A stretch of 64,000 nucleotides of DNA from Escherichia phage vB_EcoM_KAW1E185: the sequence record NC_054922.1. One strand, 5' to 3'. How positions within the stretch are numbered: the first letter of the stretch is position 1; each line of letters starts with the position of its first letter. The translations under genes were made by a program, and so were the position numbers. The notes under the pieces are model-generated. The model had not been told where the DNA came from. It did not search any database and saw only the letters and a program-made list of their open reading frames with translations. This document shows, one piece after another, positions 30,422 to 38,607 of the stretch.

Positions 30422-30895
30422 TTATTTGAACGATTTAACGTACTGAATAGAACCTTTACTATTCACAAAGGCAATTTTACCATTTTTGTTATACATGGTA
30501 GCAGTACGTTGATAGCCATAAGTTTGTTTACCAGATTGATAACCAACTAATGCGAAATTATCTTCACCCATTTTATTCTGCTTAGCACGAATGCGTTCAT
30601 GACCATGTGCCATAAGAACCTTAGCATCACCAGTTGCAATGGATCTACGAGTTTTTTCATCTTCAACTGTATTAACAAAGTCGTCAAATGAATCAAATTT
30701 AGCATGAGATTTATTATACAGTTTTCCATCTACTGCATAATTATATCCTTGTACATCCATCTCAACTTCTGTACCATCATCCAGTACAGCAGTGATTTTC
30801 TGTCCTTTTTTAAATTTCAAAAGATCAGTAAAAGATTCAGCAATAATTTGAGAATTAATAGCTGCTTCAGTAATAAATTCTTGATATGTTTTCAT
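30422..30895 (-). CDS. Internal-protein-like capsid-targeted protein (157 aa)
   Basis: N-terminal MKTYQEFITEA resembles the T4 internal-protein capsid targeting sequence. Confidence 0.6.
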   Translation of the reverse strand: MKTYQEFITEAAINSQIIAESFTDLLKFKKGQKITAVLDDGTEVEMDVQGYNYAVDGKLYNKSHAKFDSFDDFVNTVEDEKTRRSIATGDAKVLMAHGHERIRAKQNKMGEDNFALVGYQSGKQTYGYQRTATMYNKNGKIAFVNSKGSIQYVKSFK

Positions 30896-30989: not shown

Positions 30990-31520
<531 letters not shown>

Positions 31521-31961
31521 TTAAAAGAGGTTGTTCATTATTCGGTAAAGTGAAGGACCCATCACATATTGCCACTGAGTACGAGGAATAAGAGCAAAAG
31601 CGTCCATCTCTGGAATCATAACGCCATCTTTATTTTCAAAATAAGACTCGCAATGGCAATTTCTGAACATCTCATGCTCTACTGGAATCGTATAATAAAA
31701 TAACTGTAAGTCTTTATTACTAGAATATTTAAATACACCTAGGTCTTCTAGAAGGTCTGGATTATAATTGCTAAAACCGGTCTCTTCTAAACATTCTCTT
31801 CGTGCTGCATCTAATGCGCTCAAATCAGAACATTCTACACGACCTTTTGGAATATCCCAGCGATGTGCCATCATTCCAGGCTTACGAGAACCAGTAACTC
31901 GTCCCATAAATAAATCTTTATCTTCTGTCATAAAGATAATACCAGCTGATAATGTTTTCAT
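31521..31961 (-). CDS. nudE: Nudix hydrolase NudE (start taken at internal ATG; ORF track 31521-31976)
   Basis: Nudix box GRVECSDLSALDAARRECLEETGF; SD AGGAAA and ATGA overlap favour the ATG at 31961. Confidence 0.8.
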   Translation of the reverse strand: MKTLSAGIIFMTEDKDLFMGRVTGSRKPGMMAHRWDIPKGRVECSDLSALDAARRECLEETGFSNYNPDLLEDLGVFKYSSNKDLQLFYYTIPVEHEMFRNCHCESYFENKDGVMIPEMDAFALIPRTQWQYVMGPSLYRIMNNLF

Positions 31962-32446
31962 TTTAATTTCCTGCATTCAGTGATAAAGCTATTTAAATTT
32001 TGGGTATATTTCTTTTCATCAAAAATCTTTTGTTGTCTGCGTAAACGCCATGGCATTTCAATGAACGTGTACCATATCCCAGATAGTATTGCTGCTGTAA
32101 AAATATTAACAAGTATGGTTAAAATAATCCAATCTCCCGTTCTGTCTACTGGACTTTCTCCAAAGAAGCAAAATACAAATGATGTCACAGGAAAACTAAT
32201 AATGTACCACAGAATCATAATTTTATCTGTGAACCAATCAGCGTTCGTTAATTTAGCGCGACCATTATGAATACACACGAATTTATCATCTGTTGCAGTA
32301 GATGGCTTAGCTGCTTGATATCCCATTCTAAACTCCCTAATCAACAAATTTTTCATATCTTCGGAACAACCATTCCAGTCAACTCTATCAACTGAAATGC
32401 CATCATCCCCATCATCTAAATCATACCAGCGAGTTTTTAAAATCAT
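31958..32446 (-). CDS. Membrane protein paralog M1 (162 aa, 2 TM)
   Basis: Two hydrophobic segments then WRLRRQQK and C-terminal ECRKLK. Confidence 0.5.
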   Translation of the reverse strand: MILKTRWYDLDDGDDGISVDRVDWNGCSEDMKNLLIREFRMGYQAAKPSTATDDKFVCIHNGRAKLTNADWFTDKIMILWYIISFPVTSFVFCFFGESPVDRTGDWIILTILVNIFTAAILSGIWYTFIEMPWRLRRQQKIFDEKKYTQNLNSFITECRKLK

Positions 32447-32805
32447 TTAATTTTCCTACAATCACTCACAAACTCTTCCATTGATTCTTTTTCAATATAA
32501 GACATGTAGCTATTATATTCCTTTAATTGTATTTTGTAATCCTTTTTTCTTTGCCAATTTATTTTAAAATTATCATAATGAAAATATAACATTGTACCAA
32601 AGAATGAAAATAATGAAATAATTTTAGTATAGTGAAGTTCACTCCAAACTTCTATTATATTTACTGTGCCGTCAATGTTTAAAATAAGACAGTCAATTAA
32701 CAATCCAAAAAGACTACCCGCAAGAGCTGCAGCCAACGCCACAGCAAAAATTAAAAATGACTCAGGAAGCGAATATTTGACTTTATTTAGTTTTGGCTTT
32801 TGCAT
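32443..32805 (-). CDS. Membrane protein paralog M2 (120 aa, 2 TM)
   Basis: Two TM segments then WQRKKDYK and C-terminal DCRKIK. Confidence 0.5.
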   Translation of the reverse strand: MQKPKLNKVKYSLPESFLIFAVALAAALAGSLFGLLIDCLILNIDGTVNIIEVWSELHYTKIISLFSFFGTMLYFHYDNFKINWQRKKDYKIQLKEYNSYMSYIEKESMEEFVSDCRKIK

Positions 32806-33200
32806 CGTGATTCCTTAACAAATTTCATAATTTCATCAAATTCATACGCAGCAAGTTTAAGCTGATGTTCCTTTTTAATCTTTTTACACTGTGCTTTCCA
32901 ATCACGTACGCGTTTACGATAATGCCTTCCTTGATACCAGTATCCTACCCAATTTACAGGTATTAATAAAAATGGAACTATCATTGGAAGAATTAATGTT
33001 GACGCAAATATTATATTAGATTCAATATCAGTCATAACATCTATAACTATTCCAACCCCCAGTAGAATTACAAATGATACAGCTATTACAGGACCTATTA
33101 ATACATCAGTAGAAATTATCTGACGCTTTAATTCATACTTCAACGGTTTACTTGGAAGGTATAGTGATGGTTTTGACATATTCTCTACATTCCTTAACAA
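32787..33200 (-). CDS. Membrane protein paralog M3 (137 aa, 2 TM; start uncertain)
   Basis: Two TM segments then RHYRKRVRDWK and C-terminal ESRCK. Confidence 0.5.
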   Translation of the reverse strand: MLRNVENMSKPSLYLPSKPLKYELKRQIISTDVLIGPVIAVSFVILLGVGIVIDVMTDIESNIIFASTLILPMIVPFLLIPVNWVGYWYQGRHYRKRVRDWKAQCKKIKKEHQLKLAAYEFDEIMKFVKESRCKSQN

Positions 33201-33756
33201 ATTTTTCTAATAATAAATCGCTTTCAAAATTGGGATTTTCTACGAATTTATCAAAAAGATCATCAACAATAGTTAAGATATTCTTTTTACTAAGAATACG
33301 TTTATTTTCATGCTTCGTTTCAGAATCAACTATAAGAGTAAAGAAATATTTCTTGCCCTGAAATTTTACAGTAGTATCAATATAGAATAAATTTGACTTT
33401 TGTAAATTACGTTTAAACCATGCATCACTTAAACTATAAACGCCAAGATAATCATAATCGTCGTTTAAATAACATACTGTCCATTCAGGAGAAATGAAAT
33501 CAGTAAATTCAACATCAAAATCGCATGTTAATAAATGAATTGATTCAATACTGTTAATAAGTATTCCAGGACGTATTAAAGACTTTTTACCTCTAGAAAA
33601 TCTTCCAGAAAGGCTTTCATCAGTTTCATATGAAGAACCCCAATAATAATTACGTCCTTCTGCCATACGTTTAAGAGCATTTAATAATTGGTCTGGAACA
33701 TCAACTTGTCTTTGGAATTCTTCAAACATTGAATTGAAATCACTTTGCATTCTCAT
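33148..33756 (-). CDS. Hypothetical protein (202 aa)
   Basis: ORF track; C-terminus FVKECREYVK overlaps next gene start. Confidence 0.5.
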   Translation of the reverse strand: MRMQSDFNSMFEEFQRQVDVPDQLLNALKRMAEGRNYYWGSSYETDESLSGRFSRGKKSLIRPGILINSIESIHLLTCDFDVEFTDFISPEWTVCYLNDDYDYLGVYSLSDAWFKRNLQKSNLFYIDTTVKFQGKKYFFTLIVDSETKHENKRILSKKNILTIVDDLFDKFVENPNFESDLLLEKFVKECREYVKTITIPSK

Positions 33757-33797
33757 TCCTATTTACTCCAAGTAATAGGGGTCGAAGCCCCTTATCA

Positions 33798-34391
33798 TTA
33801 TTTCAGAGAATTAATATATTCCTGAACATCGGCAGAGGTGGTTTCAACCCCAGAAATATTACCGTTAAAGGTTTCAACTCGAGCAAGAGTATCTTCAATA
33901 TCAACCTTAGTCAGCGCTGCAATTTCAACTACATCATCGGCAGTACTAATTCCAAGGGCATTCGCTGCACGAGTTTCACGGATATATTCCAATTTAACTG
34001 CAAGTTCTTGGCGAGCATCATCTAACTCAACTACTTTCTTGGCGATTTCAATTCGCATTTCAGCATAACCATCAGCTTTAGTAGTCAACTGCTCAGCTGT
34101 TCGACGATATAGTAAACCAAGTTTAGCATGCATTGTTACATCTTGACCTTCAGAAAGAAGCTTGCGAATTTCACGCTCTTTTGATTCAGCCTGTTTATTC
34201 TTTTCAATAACAAGTTCACGAATACGTTTTTCTTCATTAATAGATTTAACAGAAGCAGTTTTTAGATCTTTAATTTTATCAAGCAATTTTGCTGCTGCGG
34301 CAGTATACTGCTCTTCAACAGATAGATTTTTAGCCATAGCAGAACCAAGTTTAGTGCGAATAAACTCAACAATTTTCTTCAGTGTGTTCAT
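33798..34391 (-). CDS. Coiled-coil protein (197 aa), PspA/IM30-like architecture (speculative)
   Basis: Long heptad-rich, Ala/Glu/Lys/Arg-rich helices throughout. Confidence 0.45.
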
Positions 34392-34679
34392 AGTATTTCC
34401 TTAGGTTAATTAAGATTTAAAATCCATGAGAGTATTATACTCCGGATAGTTTGTAAACTATTTCAACATCGCCTTTTGCTGCTTTATAACCTTCAGCCCA
34501 AGATATAACCGAGTTTTTATCTGAAGATTCAAATTCTGGCATTGGGCTTTCGCCAATGTTCACACAATATGTTTCTTCATTTTCGTCAAACCAAATAATT
34601 AAAGTAGTCATTTATTTCTCCGTTTCTGTATTTGTTTTGATAAGTCTATAATAACACCGTCCTTGGTGTTTGTACACAA

Positions 34680-35184: not shown

Positions 35185-35658
35185 TTATTTGATTTGTTTA
35201 GCAGACCAAATGCGGTCTTTGATAATTTTTTGGATGTCTTCAACATATTCAAGAGAGTGAACATGTGGGTTATCTTTGAAACTATAAGCACGAGCTAGCT
35301 TTTGGCCTTCAGTTTTGATTACTAAAAGCTCTTTAAGGATAGCTTCATATTTGGAGATAATTCCTTTAACGATATTTTTCTCTTGTGTGACTTTAGGATC
35401 TGCTTTAGGAGCAGGTTTACCCGAAGCCTTTGCAAAAGCAGCGCCAGTAGCAACTAAACTTTTCCAGGCCATACTAACTGCATTCCCTGTAAATCCTTCG
35501 GCTTTCATATCACGAGCAAATTGGAATCGTGATTCATCGGAAGCATCTTTATAGGAATATTTACCCGCGGCAATGGCTGCTTTTGCGACAGCTTGAATTT
35601 CGGTGCTAGATGCTTCATTTAACACCGCTTCATTTAAAAATTGAGCATATGATTTCAT
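35185..35658 (-). CDS. Internal protein III-like capsid-targeted protein (157 aa from MKSYAQF)
   Basis: SD AGGAAA before ATG 35658; N-terminus MKSYAQFLNEA resembles the capsid targeting sequence; ORF-track 216-aa form overruns terminator and late promoter. Confidence 0.6.
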   Translation of the reverse strand: MKSYAQFLNEAVLNEASSTEIQAVAKAAIAAGKYSYKDASDESRFQFARDMKAEGFTGNAVSMAWKSLVATGAAFAKASGKPAPKADPKVTQEKNIVKGIISKYEAILKELLVIKTEGQKLARAYSFKDNPHVHSLEYVEDIQKIIKDRIWSAKQIK

Positions 35659-35696
35659 CTTATTTCCTGTTTTAATTTGTAGATTTAATATACTAA

Positions 35697-35704
35697 TATT
35701 TATA
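35697..35704 (-). promoter_or_regulatory. T4 late promoter
   Basis: Plus tatttata = minus TATAAATA, ~40 nt upstream of ATG. Confidence 0.6.
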
Positions 35705-35733
35705 CCAAAAAGCCCCAACCTTTCGGTCGGGGC
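35705..35733 (-). terminator. Intrinsic terminator ending the tRNA/stable-RNA transcription unit
   Basis: Minus strand GCCCCGACC-GAAA-GGUUGGGGC followed by UUUUUGG. Confidence 0.75.
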
Positions 35734-35744
35734 TAAGCCTTGCG

Positions 35745-36040
35745 GCAACCTTGTCGGGGTTCCACCTGCTAAGGCAAGTGTTTGTACGAAACGCCGGGAT
35801 TCGAACCCGGTTATTAAGTAGTTGACGCTACTCAATATTTTTAAAAGGCCATATCTCGACCATATCCGAACGTTCCGTCAAAAACGCTACTCGGCTTACG
35901 GCAAAGATATTTCCTCGAATCGATAATTCGGTGCGCCGTTTCTGCTGTGATGTAAGAGGGCATCAATAAACGCAAAGATTATTAACGCAATTCCTTACTC
36001 AGGGAACATCAGTCCGACGACTTACCGGTAGCGACCCGGT
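35745..36040 (-). ncRNA. Putative stable structured RNA(s) downstream of tRNA cluster (possible analogue of T4 species 1/2 RNAs)
   Basis: No credible ORF; tRNA-like T-arm CCGGGUUCGAAUCCCGG near 35795-35811 and several further stems; boundaries approximate. Confidence 0.35.
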
Positions 36041-36568: not shown

Positions 36569-36682
36569 ATTAATACCTACTCCAACAATCAAGATGTCTT
36601 CACACGAAATTAAGAGAAGAGTGATCAGTTCAACCCCTATAATCGCGTCAAGTAGATATTAATGTGACAGTTGTCACAAATT

Positions 36683-36757
36683 TGGCGGACGTGATAGGAT
36701 TCGAACCTATAACCAATCGCTTAACAGGCGATCGCTCTGCCATTGAGCTACACATCC
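36683..36757 (-). tRNA. tRNA-Asn (anticodon GUU)
   Basis: Hand-folded cloverleaf, 75 nt; anticodon loop CUGUUAA. Confidence 0.75.
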
Positions 36758-36761
36758 AAAT

Positions 36762-36848
36762 TGGTGGGGAGTGGTGGAGTCGAACCACCCGAGTCGCAAT
36801 GACAATGAATTTACAGTCCACACCGCTACCTCTACGGGATAACTCCCC
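36762..36848 (-). tRNA. tRNA-Tyr (anticodon GUA), long variable arm
   Basis: 87 nt; anticodon loop CUGUAAA; stem has two G-U pairs. Confidence 0.6.
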
Positions 36849-36857
36849 AAATTAATT

Positions 36858-36932
36858 TGGTGGCCCTGGGTGGAATTGAACCACCATCTGGCGATTATGA
36901 GTCGCTTGCTTGAACCTTCCAGCTACAGGGCC
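36858..36932 (-). tRNA. tRNA with anticodon CAU (elongator Met or Ile2-lysidine type)
   Basis: 75 nt; anticodon loop CUCAUAA; G1-C72 pair argues against initiator. Confidence 0.7.
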
Positions 36933-36933
36933 T

Positions 36934-37009
36934 TGGTGCTGATTGACGGAATCGAACCGCCGACCTTCTCATTACAAGTGAGTTGCTCTACCTACTAAGC
37001 TAAATCAGC
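36934..37009 (-). tRNA. tRNA-Thr (anticodon UGU)
   Basis: 76 nt; anticodon loop CUUGUAA. Confidence 0.75.
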
Positions 37010-37110: not shown

Positions 37111-37761
37111 TTATATATTGTTAATTTGATTTAGAATTCTTTTTGCTTGAGTATGACTTACGCCAATATGCTTAGCATATTTAGACAATTCGCCACGTTT
37201 AGAAAAATCATATAATTTAGAAATTTCTATTCTTCTTTTTCTTTCATCCGCAGAAACTTTTGCTTCGTTTGCTTTTGCTATTTTACGTTTAGCTTCTTGA
37301 GAATGAGTTTTACCAGCAAAGCCATTCTTCATTAATCCATTTGAAGACCATCCTTTTAATTTTCCGTTAGAATGTGCCTTTTTAACACCCAATGAAATTA
37401 ATTCGCGTTGCTGATCTGTCATAGGATAATTATTTATATGGTCCCATCCACCTTCACCTCCAAGTTTTAAATTATACACATCTGGTCTATTTAAAAACTC
37501 TTCTGTGACAATATTTTTCTCGGCTTCAAGCATAGATTCTTTATCGTCAAAATACTCTAATATTTCTTTAGAAAAATTTTCTATACCATATTTATCTTGG
37601 GCTCTTTTTAATAATTTACCAGAACCCATATATCCATCATCTAAATTTTCGGTAGAATGCACACCAATATAAATTTTATTATTAATTTTATTTGTTATTT
37701 TATAAAGATAAAAATGCATATCAGTCCCTAATAAAGAACTGAGCGTCTCACGACGAGTCAT
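37111..37761 (-). CDS. segB: GIY-YIG homing endonuclease (SegB-like) inserted within the tRNA cluster
   Basis: 216 aa; FYLYKITN...KIYIGV GIY-YIG motif; basic C-terminal DNA-binding tail; flanked by tRNA genes. Confidence 0.8.
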   Translation of the reverse strand: MTRRETLSSLLGTDMHFYLYKITNKINNKIYIGVHSTENLDDGYMGSGKLLKRAQDKYGIENFSKEILEYFDDKESMLEAEKNIVTEEFLNRPDVYNLKLGGEGGWDHINNYPMTDQQRELISLGVKKAHSNGKLKGWSSNGLMKNGFAGKTHSQEAKRKIAKANEAKVSADERKRRIEISKLYDFSKRGELSKYAKHIGVSHTQAKRILNQINNI

Positions 37762-37765
37762 AAAT

Positions 37766-37839
<74 letters not shown>

Positions 37840-37844
37840 AAATT

Positions 37845-37931
37845 TGGTGCGAGAAGTGGGACTCGAACCCACAAGGAAATCATTCCGCAGCATTTTAAGT
37901 GCTGTGCCTTTACCAATTTGACCATTCTCGC
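37845..37931 (-). tRNA. tRNA-Leu (anticodon UAA), long variable arm
   Basis: 87 nt; anticodon loop CUUAAAA. Confidence 0.8.
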
Positions 37932-38005
37932 GCTGGGAATAAAGGACTCGAACCTTTGCATCTAGCAGTCAAAGTGCTATGCCTTACCAACTTGGCTAAT
38001 TCCCA
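37932..38005 (-). tRNA. tRNA-Gln (anticodon UUG), CCA not fully encoded
   Basis: Anticodon loop CUUUGAC; abuts tRNA-Leu. Confidence 0.75.
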
Positions 38006-38091
38006 ATTATTAACAAAGGCTCTCAAACAAGAACCCTTGATGATAGAGGGTATTAATCAGTGCGGTATGAGTTAATAATAACAAATAATTC

Positions 38092-38607
38092 TTAAAGCAA
38101 ATTAAACATTTTAACGGTCGGCAAAACAATTTCTTCTTCTATATAAGAGTATTTAACACTCTCAACTACACGCAAAAAATCATAATCATAATACTCAGAA
38201 GCATTACCTAAAATATTAATAAGTCCTTCAAGCACTTTATTACCATTCACAAAGAATAAGTCAAATACGCGTTCTTCGTCTTCTTCGGATTTATTACCAA
38301 GGTCAACTTCTATATCAAAGACCTTTTTAATGAATTCTGGATAAAGTTGTTCTGAGAACAGTCCTTCAACCAAGTATTCATAAATAAAAAGCGATTGCTC
38401 GCTGAACAAGCCATTACCACAATAACGTTCAGCTTTAGTACTAGAATGTCTACTTTTAAACTTCTTTAAAAGATATTGAAATTGTAAGATTTCATGCTCT
38501 TCTACGCCAAACAGTGTTTTAGTTTTATAGTTGTCACCATCATTTTCCCAGGTAGTGGCATCAATTACGTAACCCTGTGGAATTGTAGTACCTAAACAAA
38601 TATTCAT
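38092..38607 (-). CDS. Hypothetical acidic protein (171 aa)
   Basis: ORF track. Confidence 0.5.
   Translation of the reverse strand: MNICLGTTIPQGYVIDATTWENDGDNYKTKTLFGVEEHEILQFQYLLKKFKSRHSSTKAERYCGNGLFSEQSLFIYEYLVEGLFSEQLYPEFIKKVFDIEVDLGNKSEEDEERVFDLFFVNGNKVLEGLINILGNASEYYDYDFLRVVESVKYSYIEEEIVLPTVKMFNLL

Follow-up and report, generated by a model that had tools for sequence, protein, structure and literature searches.

What kind of protein is encoded by gene e.6 of the T4-like phages, and what might it do in the infected cell? The question is raised here by a 64,000 nucleotide stretch of the genome of Escherichia phage vB_EcoM_KAW1E185 (sequence record NC_054922.1; the whole stretch is called the window below), in which an earlier look at the letters alone, the sequence-only reading, had singled out a 197 amino acid open reading frame (ORF) at 33798-34391 as resembling the PspA/IM30/Vipp1 membrane-stress family. 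The ORF lies exactly there, on the minus strand and with an ATG start codon, and our analysis leads us to view its product as a divergent phage-encoded member of the PspA/IM30/Vipp1 family, within the ESCRT-III superfamily, an assignment that is made at the family-profile level only. Taken as a whole, the idea that e.6 is a PspA/IM30-like protein that stabilises the inner membrane of the infected cell seems to us somewhat better than an even proposition; its parts, which differ in strength, are weighed below. The gene and its translation start are as follows.

33798..34391, minus strand: e.6 coding sequence (197 amino acids plus stop), PspA/IM30-like, from the ORF list, the sequence, orthology to RB14/T4 e.6 and PHROG 1203

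34398..34402 (34402-34398), minus strand: e.6 Shine-Dalgarno sequence AAGGA, 6 nucleotides ahead of the ATG, as seen in the sequence itself

The 2 kb stretch around e.6 has matches in 670 phage records and is 97% identical in DNA sequence to Escherichia phages PE37, RB3 and RB14. The RB14 record annotates the ORF as "e.6 hypothetical protein" within the gene order e.8, small ORF, e.6, e.5, e.4, e.3, e.2, nudE and e (lysozyme), and the window protein is 99% identical to T4 e.6. The window segment is from a T4-type myovirus genome and the ORF is the ortholog of the T4-type (Tequatrovirus) gene e.6. Searches with tblastn found e.6 in 1105 of 50,697 phage records, the hosts being mainly Escherichia, Klebsiella, Shigella, Aeromonas, Enterobacter and Yersinia, and the protein matches PHROG 1203 (function unknown) with an E value of 1e-87. 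The family is small and uniform: the homologs form 49 clusters at 90% identity, and 1.84 billion proteins contain 45 representatives at 50% identity, of which the full-length ones have about 195-209 amino acids. Gene e.6 is thus a real, conserved gene of T4-like phages. Its homologs are mostly labelled hypothetical protein, and some carry the label "host specificity protein" (for example MZ681930.1, OL741432.1 and ON210139.1), which UniRef repeats; nothing in any search, nor in the sequence, fold, expression time or context, supports that label, and it looks like a propagated misannotation.

The relationship to PspA becomes visible when the family is searched as a family. A profile from 54 aligned e.6 family members, which include divergent full-length relatives down to 18% identity, retrieved Vipp1/PspA chains as eight of its top nine PDB matches (a prefoldin is the exception), the best with an E value of 8.9e-5 and aligning 1-146 to 1-147. 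When the same alignment was compared by hhalign with an alignment of PspA and Vipp1, the match had 90.9% probability (E 1.1e-6, 168 columns), and 82.7% without the bridging members. The Pfam family PF04012 is matched by five of the 54 members, and P0187 (39.0 bits) and P0186 (35.1 bits) are above its gathering cutoff of 33.9, aligned from 6-146 to profile positions 2-143. P0187 is not a stray bacterial PspA: its gene belongs to a T4-like contig, where it adjoins UvsX and the gp41 helicase, and with the window e.6 the protein aligns over 194 residues (E 1e-13, 25% identity). An alignment of 31 close e.6 homologs gave a weak Vipp1 match in the PDB (E 1.2), yet one that is in register, 4-143 against 4-145, and a Foldseek search of the PDB with the e.6 model placed Vipp1 at ranks 1 through 9, followed by CHMP1B. 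The PspA/IM30/Vipp1 likeness noticed at first sight is therefore borne out at the level of family profiles, and such comparisons make it very probable that, from residue 1 on and for about 170 residues, the e.6 family and PspA/IM30 are homologous. The resemblance is already known, having been in print since 2021: gp163 of Klebsiella phage Metamorpho was described as a "homolog of T4 protein e.6" with a 99.9% HHpred match to E. coli PspA 4WHE_A, in a single sentence that proposes no function (PMC7862958). Because the homology is already stated there, we count the PspA-like assignment as supported and not as new. Metamorpho gp163 is 59% identical to the window e.6 over all 197 residues.

Could e.6 instead be some generic coiled-coil protein (a scaffold, say, or else a BAR-like curvature protein or spanin-like lysis factor) whose likeness to PspA is convergent and stems from heptad composition? 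The protein is rich in Ala, Glu, Lys and Arg, as the sequence-only reading had remarked (E 11.7, A 11.7, K 10.7, L 10.2 and R 6.1%; A+E+K+R = 40%). The same reading's description of it as heptad-rich throughout holds for the protein taken whole, whose 3.5-residue hydrophobic periodicity is above all 2000 shuffles, and for residues 25-80, where 0.7% of shuffles reach it, but not for residues 86-145, where the periodicity is not significant (10.8% of shuffles). Weak coiled-coil Pfam matches scattered over many families would fit a generic coiled coil, as would a weak PHROG match to an Rz-like spanin (PHROG 1267, E 0.22 only). However, the PspA/Vipp1 alignment does not float along the protein; it runs end to end and in register from residue 1, and two family members pass the curated PF04012 threshold. 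The hhalign controls, too, score far lower: the reversed control gave 1.3%, and 60 heptad-block permutations scored 15.8 +/- 2.2, with a maximum of 25.7, versus 47.1 observed (reversed and heptad-block-permuted controls were used, circular shifts being invalid since a local alignment re-finds the true segment). As for a spanin, e.6 has no predicted transmembrane (TM) segment, its N-terminus has no evident lipobox, and in T4 its RNA is early and its protein middle, not late. We consider convergence very improbable and continue with the PspA/IM30-like reading, whose structural counterparts in e.6 can be laid out as follows.

34326..34388, minus strand: predicted cationic amphipathic N-terminal helix, alpha0 counterpart (codons 2-22), from the AlphaFold2 helix 3-22, the hydrophobic moment (muH) and hhalign

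33957..34319, minus strand: predicted long helical hairpin (helix 25-80, turn 81-85, helix 86-145), counterpart of ESCRT-III/PspA alpha1-alpha2/3 (codons 25-145), from AlphaFold2 and the alignments

33801..33956, minus strand: short low-confidence C-terminal helices and tail T-T-S-A-D-V-x-E-Y-L-x-S-L-K (codons 146-197), from AlphaFold2 and the family alignment

The AlphaFold2 model consists of helices only (3-22, 25-80, 86-145, 151-160, 166-173 and 186-196), in agreement with the all-helical character first attributed to the protein; the mean predicted local distance difference test score (pLDDT) of the e.6 models is 74-75. In the predicted fold a cationic amphipathic alpha0 (2-22) is followed by the long alpha1/alpha2-3 hairpin (25-145), and what comes after it at the C-terminal end is shortened. 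The helix at 2-22 has a muH of 0.45 versus a protein mean of 0.26, and that of E. coli PspA alpha0 is 0.42; across the 54 family members the N-terminal helix averages 0.40 versus 0.25 for the remainder of the protein, with an average net charge of +3.6, whereas the whole proteins average -2. The first 22 residues of e.6 are paired by hhalign with PspA residues 1-22 (alpha0), and hydrophobic residues match, L4, I7, F10, I11, L15 and A18 of e.6 falling opposite F4, F7, I10, V11, I15 and L18 of PspA. To be amphipathic and cationic is characteristic of helices that attach to anionic membranes, and such binding is predicted for the N-terminal helix of e.6. The hairpin is in register with Vipp1 and PspA, its turn at 81-85 coinciding with the PspA turn, and its pLDDT, averaged over 10-residue blocks, is about 74-98 when modelled from the single sequence and 68-95 when the alignment is used. 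By comparison the C-terminal helices 151-160, 166-173 and 186-196 mostly have pLDDT below 55, and the hhalign coverage of e.6 stops at residue 176; Y192, S195, L196 and K197 are nearly invariant in the family.

In T4, e.6 occupies T4 coordinates 69312-69905, and time-resolved omics class its RNA as early and its protein as middle, the protein having been detected by proteomics (PMC9697503 supplement). Two genome-wide screens show that T4 e.6 is dispensable in laboratory infections: a CRISPRi-ART knock-down was scored "Not Fit", that is, without fitness effect (PMC11879866 supplement), and HIDEN-SEQ recovered insertions at 43 of 43 sites and called the gene non-essential (bioRxiv 10.1101/2025.11.20.689424 supplement). 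Beyond a genome announcement and such genome-wide screens, we found no functional studies of e.6 in the literature. Neither a late promoter (TATAAATA) nor a MotA-box middle promoter is present directly upstream of e.6 in the window. Sigma-70-like matches, which at consensus level are weak evidence, occur upstream of e.6 at 34676-34648 and 35015-34987, both downstream of a strong terminator-like hairpin at 35177-35154. The MotA-box pattern TGCTTYA-N11-13-TANNNT occurs 13 times in the whole window versus 2.2 expected; the nearest one upstream of e.6 on the minus strand is at 38075-38099, ahead of the tRNA region. We note that copies of the late-promoter consensus at 31498-31505 and 31511-31518 lie just upstream of the lysozyme gene e.

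What would a phage do with such a protein? A cell infected by T4 relies on the proton-motive force, the collapse of which triggers the holin. By analogy with PspA, Vipp1 and ESCRT-III, e.6 would, soon after infection, bind the cytoplasmic face of the host inner membrane, with alpha0 inserting into the cytoplasmic leaflet; its hairpins would stack and polymerise to carpets, rings or rods, and these polymers might cover, seal or stiffen stressed membrane and limit proton leakage, so that the proton-motive force is preserved. Both replication and lysis triggered by the holin at the correct time would require that force, and early e.6 could guard against premature depolarisation, possible causes of which are injection by a superinfecting phage, the phage's own many small membrane proteins and membrane-depolarising abortive-infection systems. 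We put a functional role as an early-made inner-membrane stabiliser at about even chances.

The same early expression would also fit a host-takeover function, in which e.6 is a molecular mimic of host PspA that binds PspF or PspB/PspC and silences or hijacks the phage-shock response, with no repair of membranes. The homology covers the PspA 1-144 region, and the fragment of E. coli PspA with those residues is reportedly the PspF-binding fragment in the 4WHE work. However, with about 13% identity to E. coli PspA a conserved PspF-binding surface is not evident in e.6, and, host transcription being shut off by T4 within minutes, there would be little obvious gain in repressing a sigma-54 regulon. 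The e.6 family is also found in phages of Aeromonas and other hosts, and the conserved cationic amphipathic alpha0 points to membrane binding. Mimicry of this kind appears unlikely to us, if less so than convergence.

Several observations weigh against the membrane-stabiliser reading and deserve to be set beside it. The window e.6 sequence used alone has no NCBIfam match, no PDB match by phmmer and no PF04012 match even at E<=10 in Pfam. The sequence-only reading had made a PspA profile hit the touchstone of its proposal; a single-sequence hit is absent, whereas the family profile does link e.6 to PspA. Since the single-sequence searches are empty and hhalign of the e.6 family against one PspA sequence gives 20% only, the PspA link is visible only with profiles on both sides, and the PspA reference profile is itself shallow (effective number of sequences, Neff, 1.8). 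The alignment of close T4-type homologs gives only 10% probability against PspA and Vipp1 in hhalign, and consequently the assignment of e.6 to PspA rests on divergent relatives and on the published HHpred result. The C-terminal third is shorter than PspA alpha4-alpha5 and is poorly predicted. In PspA and Vipp1, alpha4-alpha5 contribute to polymer contacts, and because this region is shortened in e.6, polymerisation is not to be assumed. Partner families of the pspB, pspC, pspF or liaI type were not found by Pfam among the e.6 neighbours, and both the knock-down of e.6 and transposon insertions in it were without effect in standard hosts.

The genes that follow e.6 bear on how such a protein might be recruited. 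The sequence-only reading had placed it beside three membrane-protein paralogs, a description that needs correcting on two counts: e.5, which has no predicted TM segment, intervenes before e.4, e.3 and e.2, and these three, like e.2 through e.5 in general, have no BLASTP similarity to one another at E<=1e-3. The sole likeness detected is a short C-terminal motif, F-[I/V]-x-x-C/S-R, in four consecutive genes, which are given here with the motif positions.

33148..33756, minus strand: e.5, 202 amino acids, no predicted TM segment, directly downstream of e.6; FVKECR at 33184-33201

32787..33179, minus strand: e.4, 130 amino acids (ATG at 33179), two predicted TM segments; FVKESR at 32805-32822

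32443..32805, minus strand: e.3, 120 amino acids, one to two predicted TM segments; FVSDCR at 32455-32472

31958..32446, minus strand: e.2, 162 amino acids, two predicted TM segments; FITECR at 31970-31987

Their C-terminal ends read ..SFITECRKLK (e.2), ..EFVSDCRKIK (e.3), ..KFVKESRCKSQN (e.4) and ..KFVKECREYVKTITIPSK (e.5). In the whole 64 kb window F-[I/V]-x-x-C-R is confined to e.2, e.3 and e.5, and e.4 has the Ser variant FVKESR. In 16 non-redundant loci, with the motif counted as [FIW][IV]..[CASV][RK] within the last 35 residues, it is present in the gene at position +1 after e.6 in 12 of 16 cases, at +2 in 8 of 16, at +3 in 4 of 15 and at +4 in 3 of 15, versus 17 of 575 ORFs elsewhere in those loci; on the opposite strand the count is 9 of 571. 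The Fisher p of 2.7e-19 is post hoc and without phylogeny correction. Written as acidic-acidic-F-I-K-E-C-R, the consensus has its Cys in 24 of the 36 instances and its Arg in 31. Predicted membrane proteins stand beside e.6-like genes in four of the five contexts examined, and the motif carriers fall into two kinds, soluble proteins at +1 and membrane proteins in which the motif lies 18-82 residues past the last TM segment; the motif tails are predicted to be cytoplasmic, because the TM-bearing carriers have basic stretches past the last TM segment. In distant phages (loci L002/L048, L004, L006 and L007) the neighbours of e.6-like genes have no BLASTP similarity to e.2-e.5, yet they carry an I-I-x-x-A-R variant immediately beside the e.6-like gene; sequences read in unrelated neighbours of distant phages are ..DSIIKHARSR.., ..EHIIEQARNR.., ..DSIIEHSKRN.. 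and ..QSIIHQARQR... The motif-bearing neighbours in other loci are at the following positions.

L002, 7942-8124: motif-bearing neighbour of the e.6-like gene

L004, 541-819 and 1520-1723: motif-bearing neighbours

L006, 4271-5933: motif-bearing neighbours

L007, 6653-7754: motif-bearing neighbours

L050, 3088-3678: motif-bearing neighbour

The motif codons differ synonymously (TGT/TGC for Cys; AGA/AGG/CGA/CGT/CGC/CGG for Arg), so the motif is conserved at the protein level. Motif positions 3-4 (K-E, AAGGAA) or 6-7 (R-K, AGGAAA) often double as the Shine-Dalgarno sequence of the overlapping next gene, and this role probably shapes those positions. The synonymous codons and the differing Shine-Dalgarno positions rule out, as the whole explanation, a mere repeated DNA element or a mere ribosome-binding site. 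We have come across no description of the motif in the literature on e.6 and PspA, no literature search having been aimed at the motif itself.

The shared tail motif suggests, by analogy, that e.6 and its neighbours form one PspA-plus-adaptor module, much as PspC and LiaI recruit PspA and LiaH. In this proposal e.6 would be the effector of a phage Psp-like module, and e.5, e.4, e.3, e.2 and their counterparts would recruit or regulate it through the putative tail motif F-[I/V]-x-x-C-R. The concentration of the motif at +1 and +2, its confinement within the window, its persistence beside e.6-like genes in dissimilar neighbours of distant loci, its conservation as protein and its place on predicted cytoplasmic tails all speak for such a module. 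On the other hand, some of these loci had themselves served to derive the regular expression, which is what makes the Fisher p post hoc, the loci are not independent given the synteny among T4-like phages, part of the motif may be imposed at the RNA level by the Shine-Dalgarno overlap, and a host factor might just as well be what reads the motif. We hold the module to be a tentative possibility, one that refines the membrane-stabiliser reading and does not exclude it. A broader version, that T4-like phages carry a miniature phage-shock system, in which the effector e.6 is recruited or controlled at the inner membrane by the unrelated e.5-e.2 proteins and their analogues through a shared C-terminal docking motif and protects the membrane potential against superinfection or membrane-targeting abortive-infection defences, is a little more doubtful; under it, the motif-bearing module would have stayed linked to e.6-like genes even where the gene moved to another region of the genome.

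Between e.6 and e.5 there is a further conserved element at the level of the message.

33777..33792, minus strand: intercistronic RNA hairpin AGGGG-CUUCGA-CCCCU between e.6 and e.5 (33778-33791 = GGGGCUUCGACCCC), from the sequence, its conserved position and covariation

A UUCG-type hairpin had been noticed at 33778-33791 from the start. It is indeed present after the e.6 stop codon, but it departs from the canonical cUUCGg tetraloop: an A has replaced the closing G, so that the UUCG is closed by a C.A mismatch and the loop is the 6-nucleotide CUUCGA. The window copy has no U-run on its 3' side and an unremarkable stability (z -1.5), which rules it out as an intrinsic terminator. A hairpin is found at the equivalent position in 19 of 19 further loci, whose e.6 identity ranges from 99% to about 25% (including L007-L048 and L050), and in Metamorpho. 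These hairpins mostly have a GC-rich stem and a C(UUCG)G or C(UCCG)G loop, and lie 4-15 nucleotides past the stop codon, just before the GGAG of the next gene. Their stems vary by lineage (for example GGGGC/GCCCC, GGGAGAC/GTCTCCC, GGGCTC/GAGCCC and GGAGGAC/GTCCTCC), and RNAalifold, run on a 12-sequence alignment, finds compensatory changes in six of six consensus pairs. Since most copies have no U-run, the hairpin is more likely mRNA-stabilising or insulating than a terminator, and it probably protects or insulates the e.6 message. We take it to be the classical T4 C(UUCG)G intercistronic hairpin, of the kind reportedly found in phage T4 mRNAs by Tuerk et al. in 1988. It resembles those in its GC stem, its UUCG/UCCG cap, its conserved position between two early genes and its covarying stem; the window copy differs in its lost closing G-C pair, its 6-nucleotide CUUCGA loop and its unremarkable predicted stability.

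Several other features were seen around e.6 and in related phages. Between e.6 and e.8 lies a 58 amino acid ORF (34435-34611, minus strand; PHROG 5461, "similar to RB69ORF145c" in RB14) where T4 has e.7 (336 bp), a small gene replacement in a variable region. Farther upstream, two nearly identical, strong terminator-like hairpins on the minus strand, 35734-35711 and 35177-35154 (AGCCCCGACC-GAAA-GGTTGGGGCT and AGCCCCAACC-TTTC-GGTTGGGGCT, each followed by TTTTGG), bracket an ORF within 35185-35835 (minus strand). An internal Met of this ORF starts MKSYAQFLNEA, which resembles the MKTYQEFITEA of the Ip4-like ORF at 30422-30895, and a late-promoter consensus TATAAATA at 35697-35704 (minus strand) is just upstream; the ORF probably codes for an internal head protein that carries a capsid-targeting sequence. 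A 216 amino acid ORF at 37111-37761 (minus strand), with overlapping ORFs at 36648-36998 and 37758-38075, contains the GIY-YIG-like YLYKITNKINNKIYIGV and occupies the place that the tRNA cluster and SegB have in RB14 and T4; presumably this is a gene for a SegB-like homing endonuclease among tRNA genes. Downstream of the e.6 cluster several other T4-like phages have runs of three to four small ORFs (about 65-160 amino acids) that end in ..W(V/L)SSS(x)(E)C (GGWVSSSMEC, SWVSSSYEC, IWYPSSC), none of which was seen in the part of the window that was read. They are a paralogous small-protein family with a conserved C-terminal Cys, and were found at these places.

L014, 11953-13112: run of W(V/L)SSS-type small ORFs

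L023, 11710-13334: run of W(V/L)SSS-type small ORFs

L033, 11553-12576: run of W(V/L)SSS-type small ORFs

L007, 7944-8746: run of W(V/L)SSS-type small ORFs

L047, 5931-6538: run of W(V/L)SSS-type small ORFs

Foldseek against viral models (BFVD) found e.6-like folds in A0A5Q2F7S5 (Klebsiella phage UPM 2146) and A0A0A0YS32 (Erwinia phage phiEa2809), with E values of 1e-5 to 4e-5, and a match with an E value of 0.3 to A0A172Q0S7 (Acinetobacter phage vB_AbaM_ME3), which is already named "PspA/IM30 family protein". A 2026 paper mentions that gut jumbo phages have a pspA-like gene adjoining terD. The range of phages with PspA-like genes may extend beyond the T4 group.

That a virulent model phage should encode its own PspA/ESCRT-III-type protein, and make it early, suggests that T4 actively controls how intact and how energised the host inner membrane is; lysis timing, lysis inhibition, superinfection exclusion and escape from membrane-depolarising defences all depend on that membrane. 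PspA itself is called "phage shock protein" because the secretin of a filamentous phage induces it. Roughly 1100 phage genomes still list e.6 as hypothetical or, mistakenly, as "host specificity protein". T4 genetics, the clean non-essential phenotype and a candidate partner motif make its role directly testable, and e.6 would offer the ESCRT-III field a small (197 amino acids), naturally trimmed member.

How, then, does e.6 compare with the systems it resembles? With the eukaryotic and archaeal ESCRT-III proteins (CHMP1B, Snf7, CdvB) it has no sequence-level signal, and it differs from them in having no MIM-type tail for the Vps4 ATPase, the window showing no partner ATPase. From the bacterial Psp and Lia systems it differs in its surroundings: around it are phage-specific PHROGs without known function, of which some bear the label membrane protein, and F-[I/V]-x-x-C-R tails take the place of known partners. 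As against PspA/IM30/LiaH (PF04012) proteins, e.6 is encoded by a virulent phage and not by a cell, its T4-type members are below every curated threshold, some 25-45 residues fewer follow the hairpin than in PspA and a family-specific tail (..ADVxEYLxSLK) closes the protein, a family-specific motif is present at the hairpin turn, and its alpha0 (net charge about +4) is far more basic than that of E. coli PspA. It shares with the PspA/IM30 proteins its length class (197 amino acids versus 222 for E. coli PspA), an alignment in register from Met1 to about residue 176 of e.6, a predicted amphipathic alpha0 and a predicted alpha1/alpha2-3 hairpin with the turn at the same position (81-85), and distant family members that pass the PF04012 threshold. 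Metamorpho gp163, although from another genus (Jiaodavirus) and a hypothetical protein in its GenBank record, has the same synteny as the window (e.6, an e.5-like gene, membrane proteins, NudE and lysozyme), a C(UUCG)G hairpin past its stop codon and the tail motif in its neighbours.

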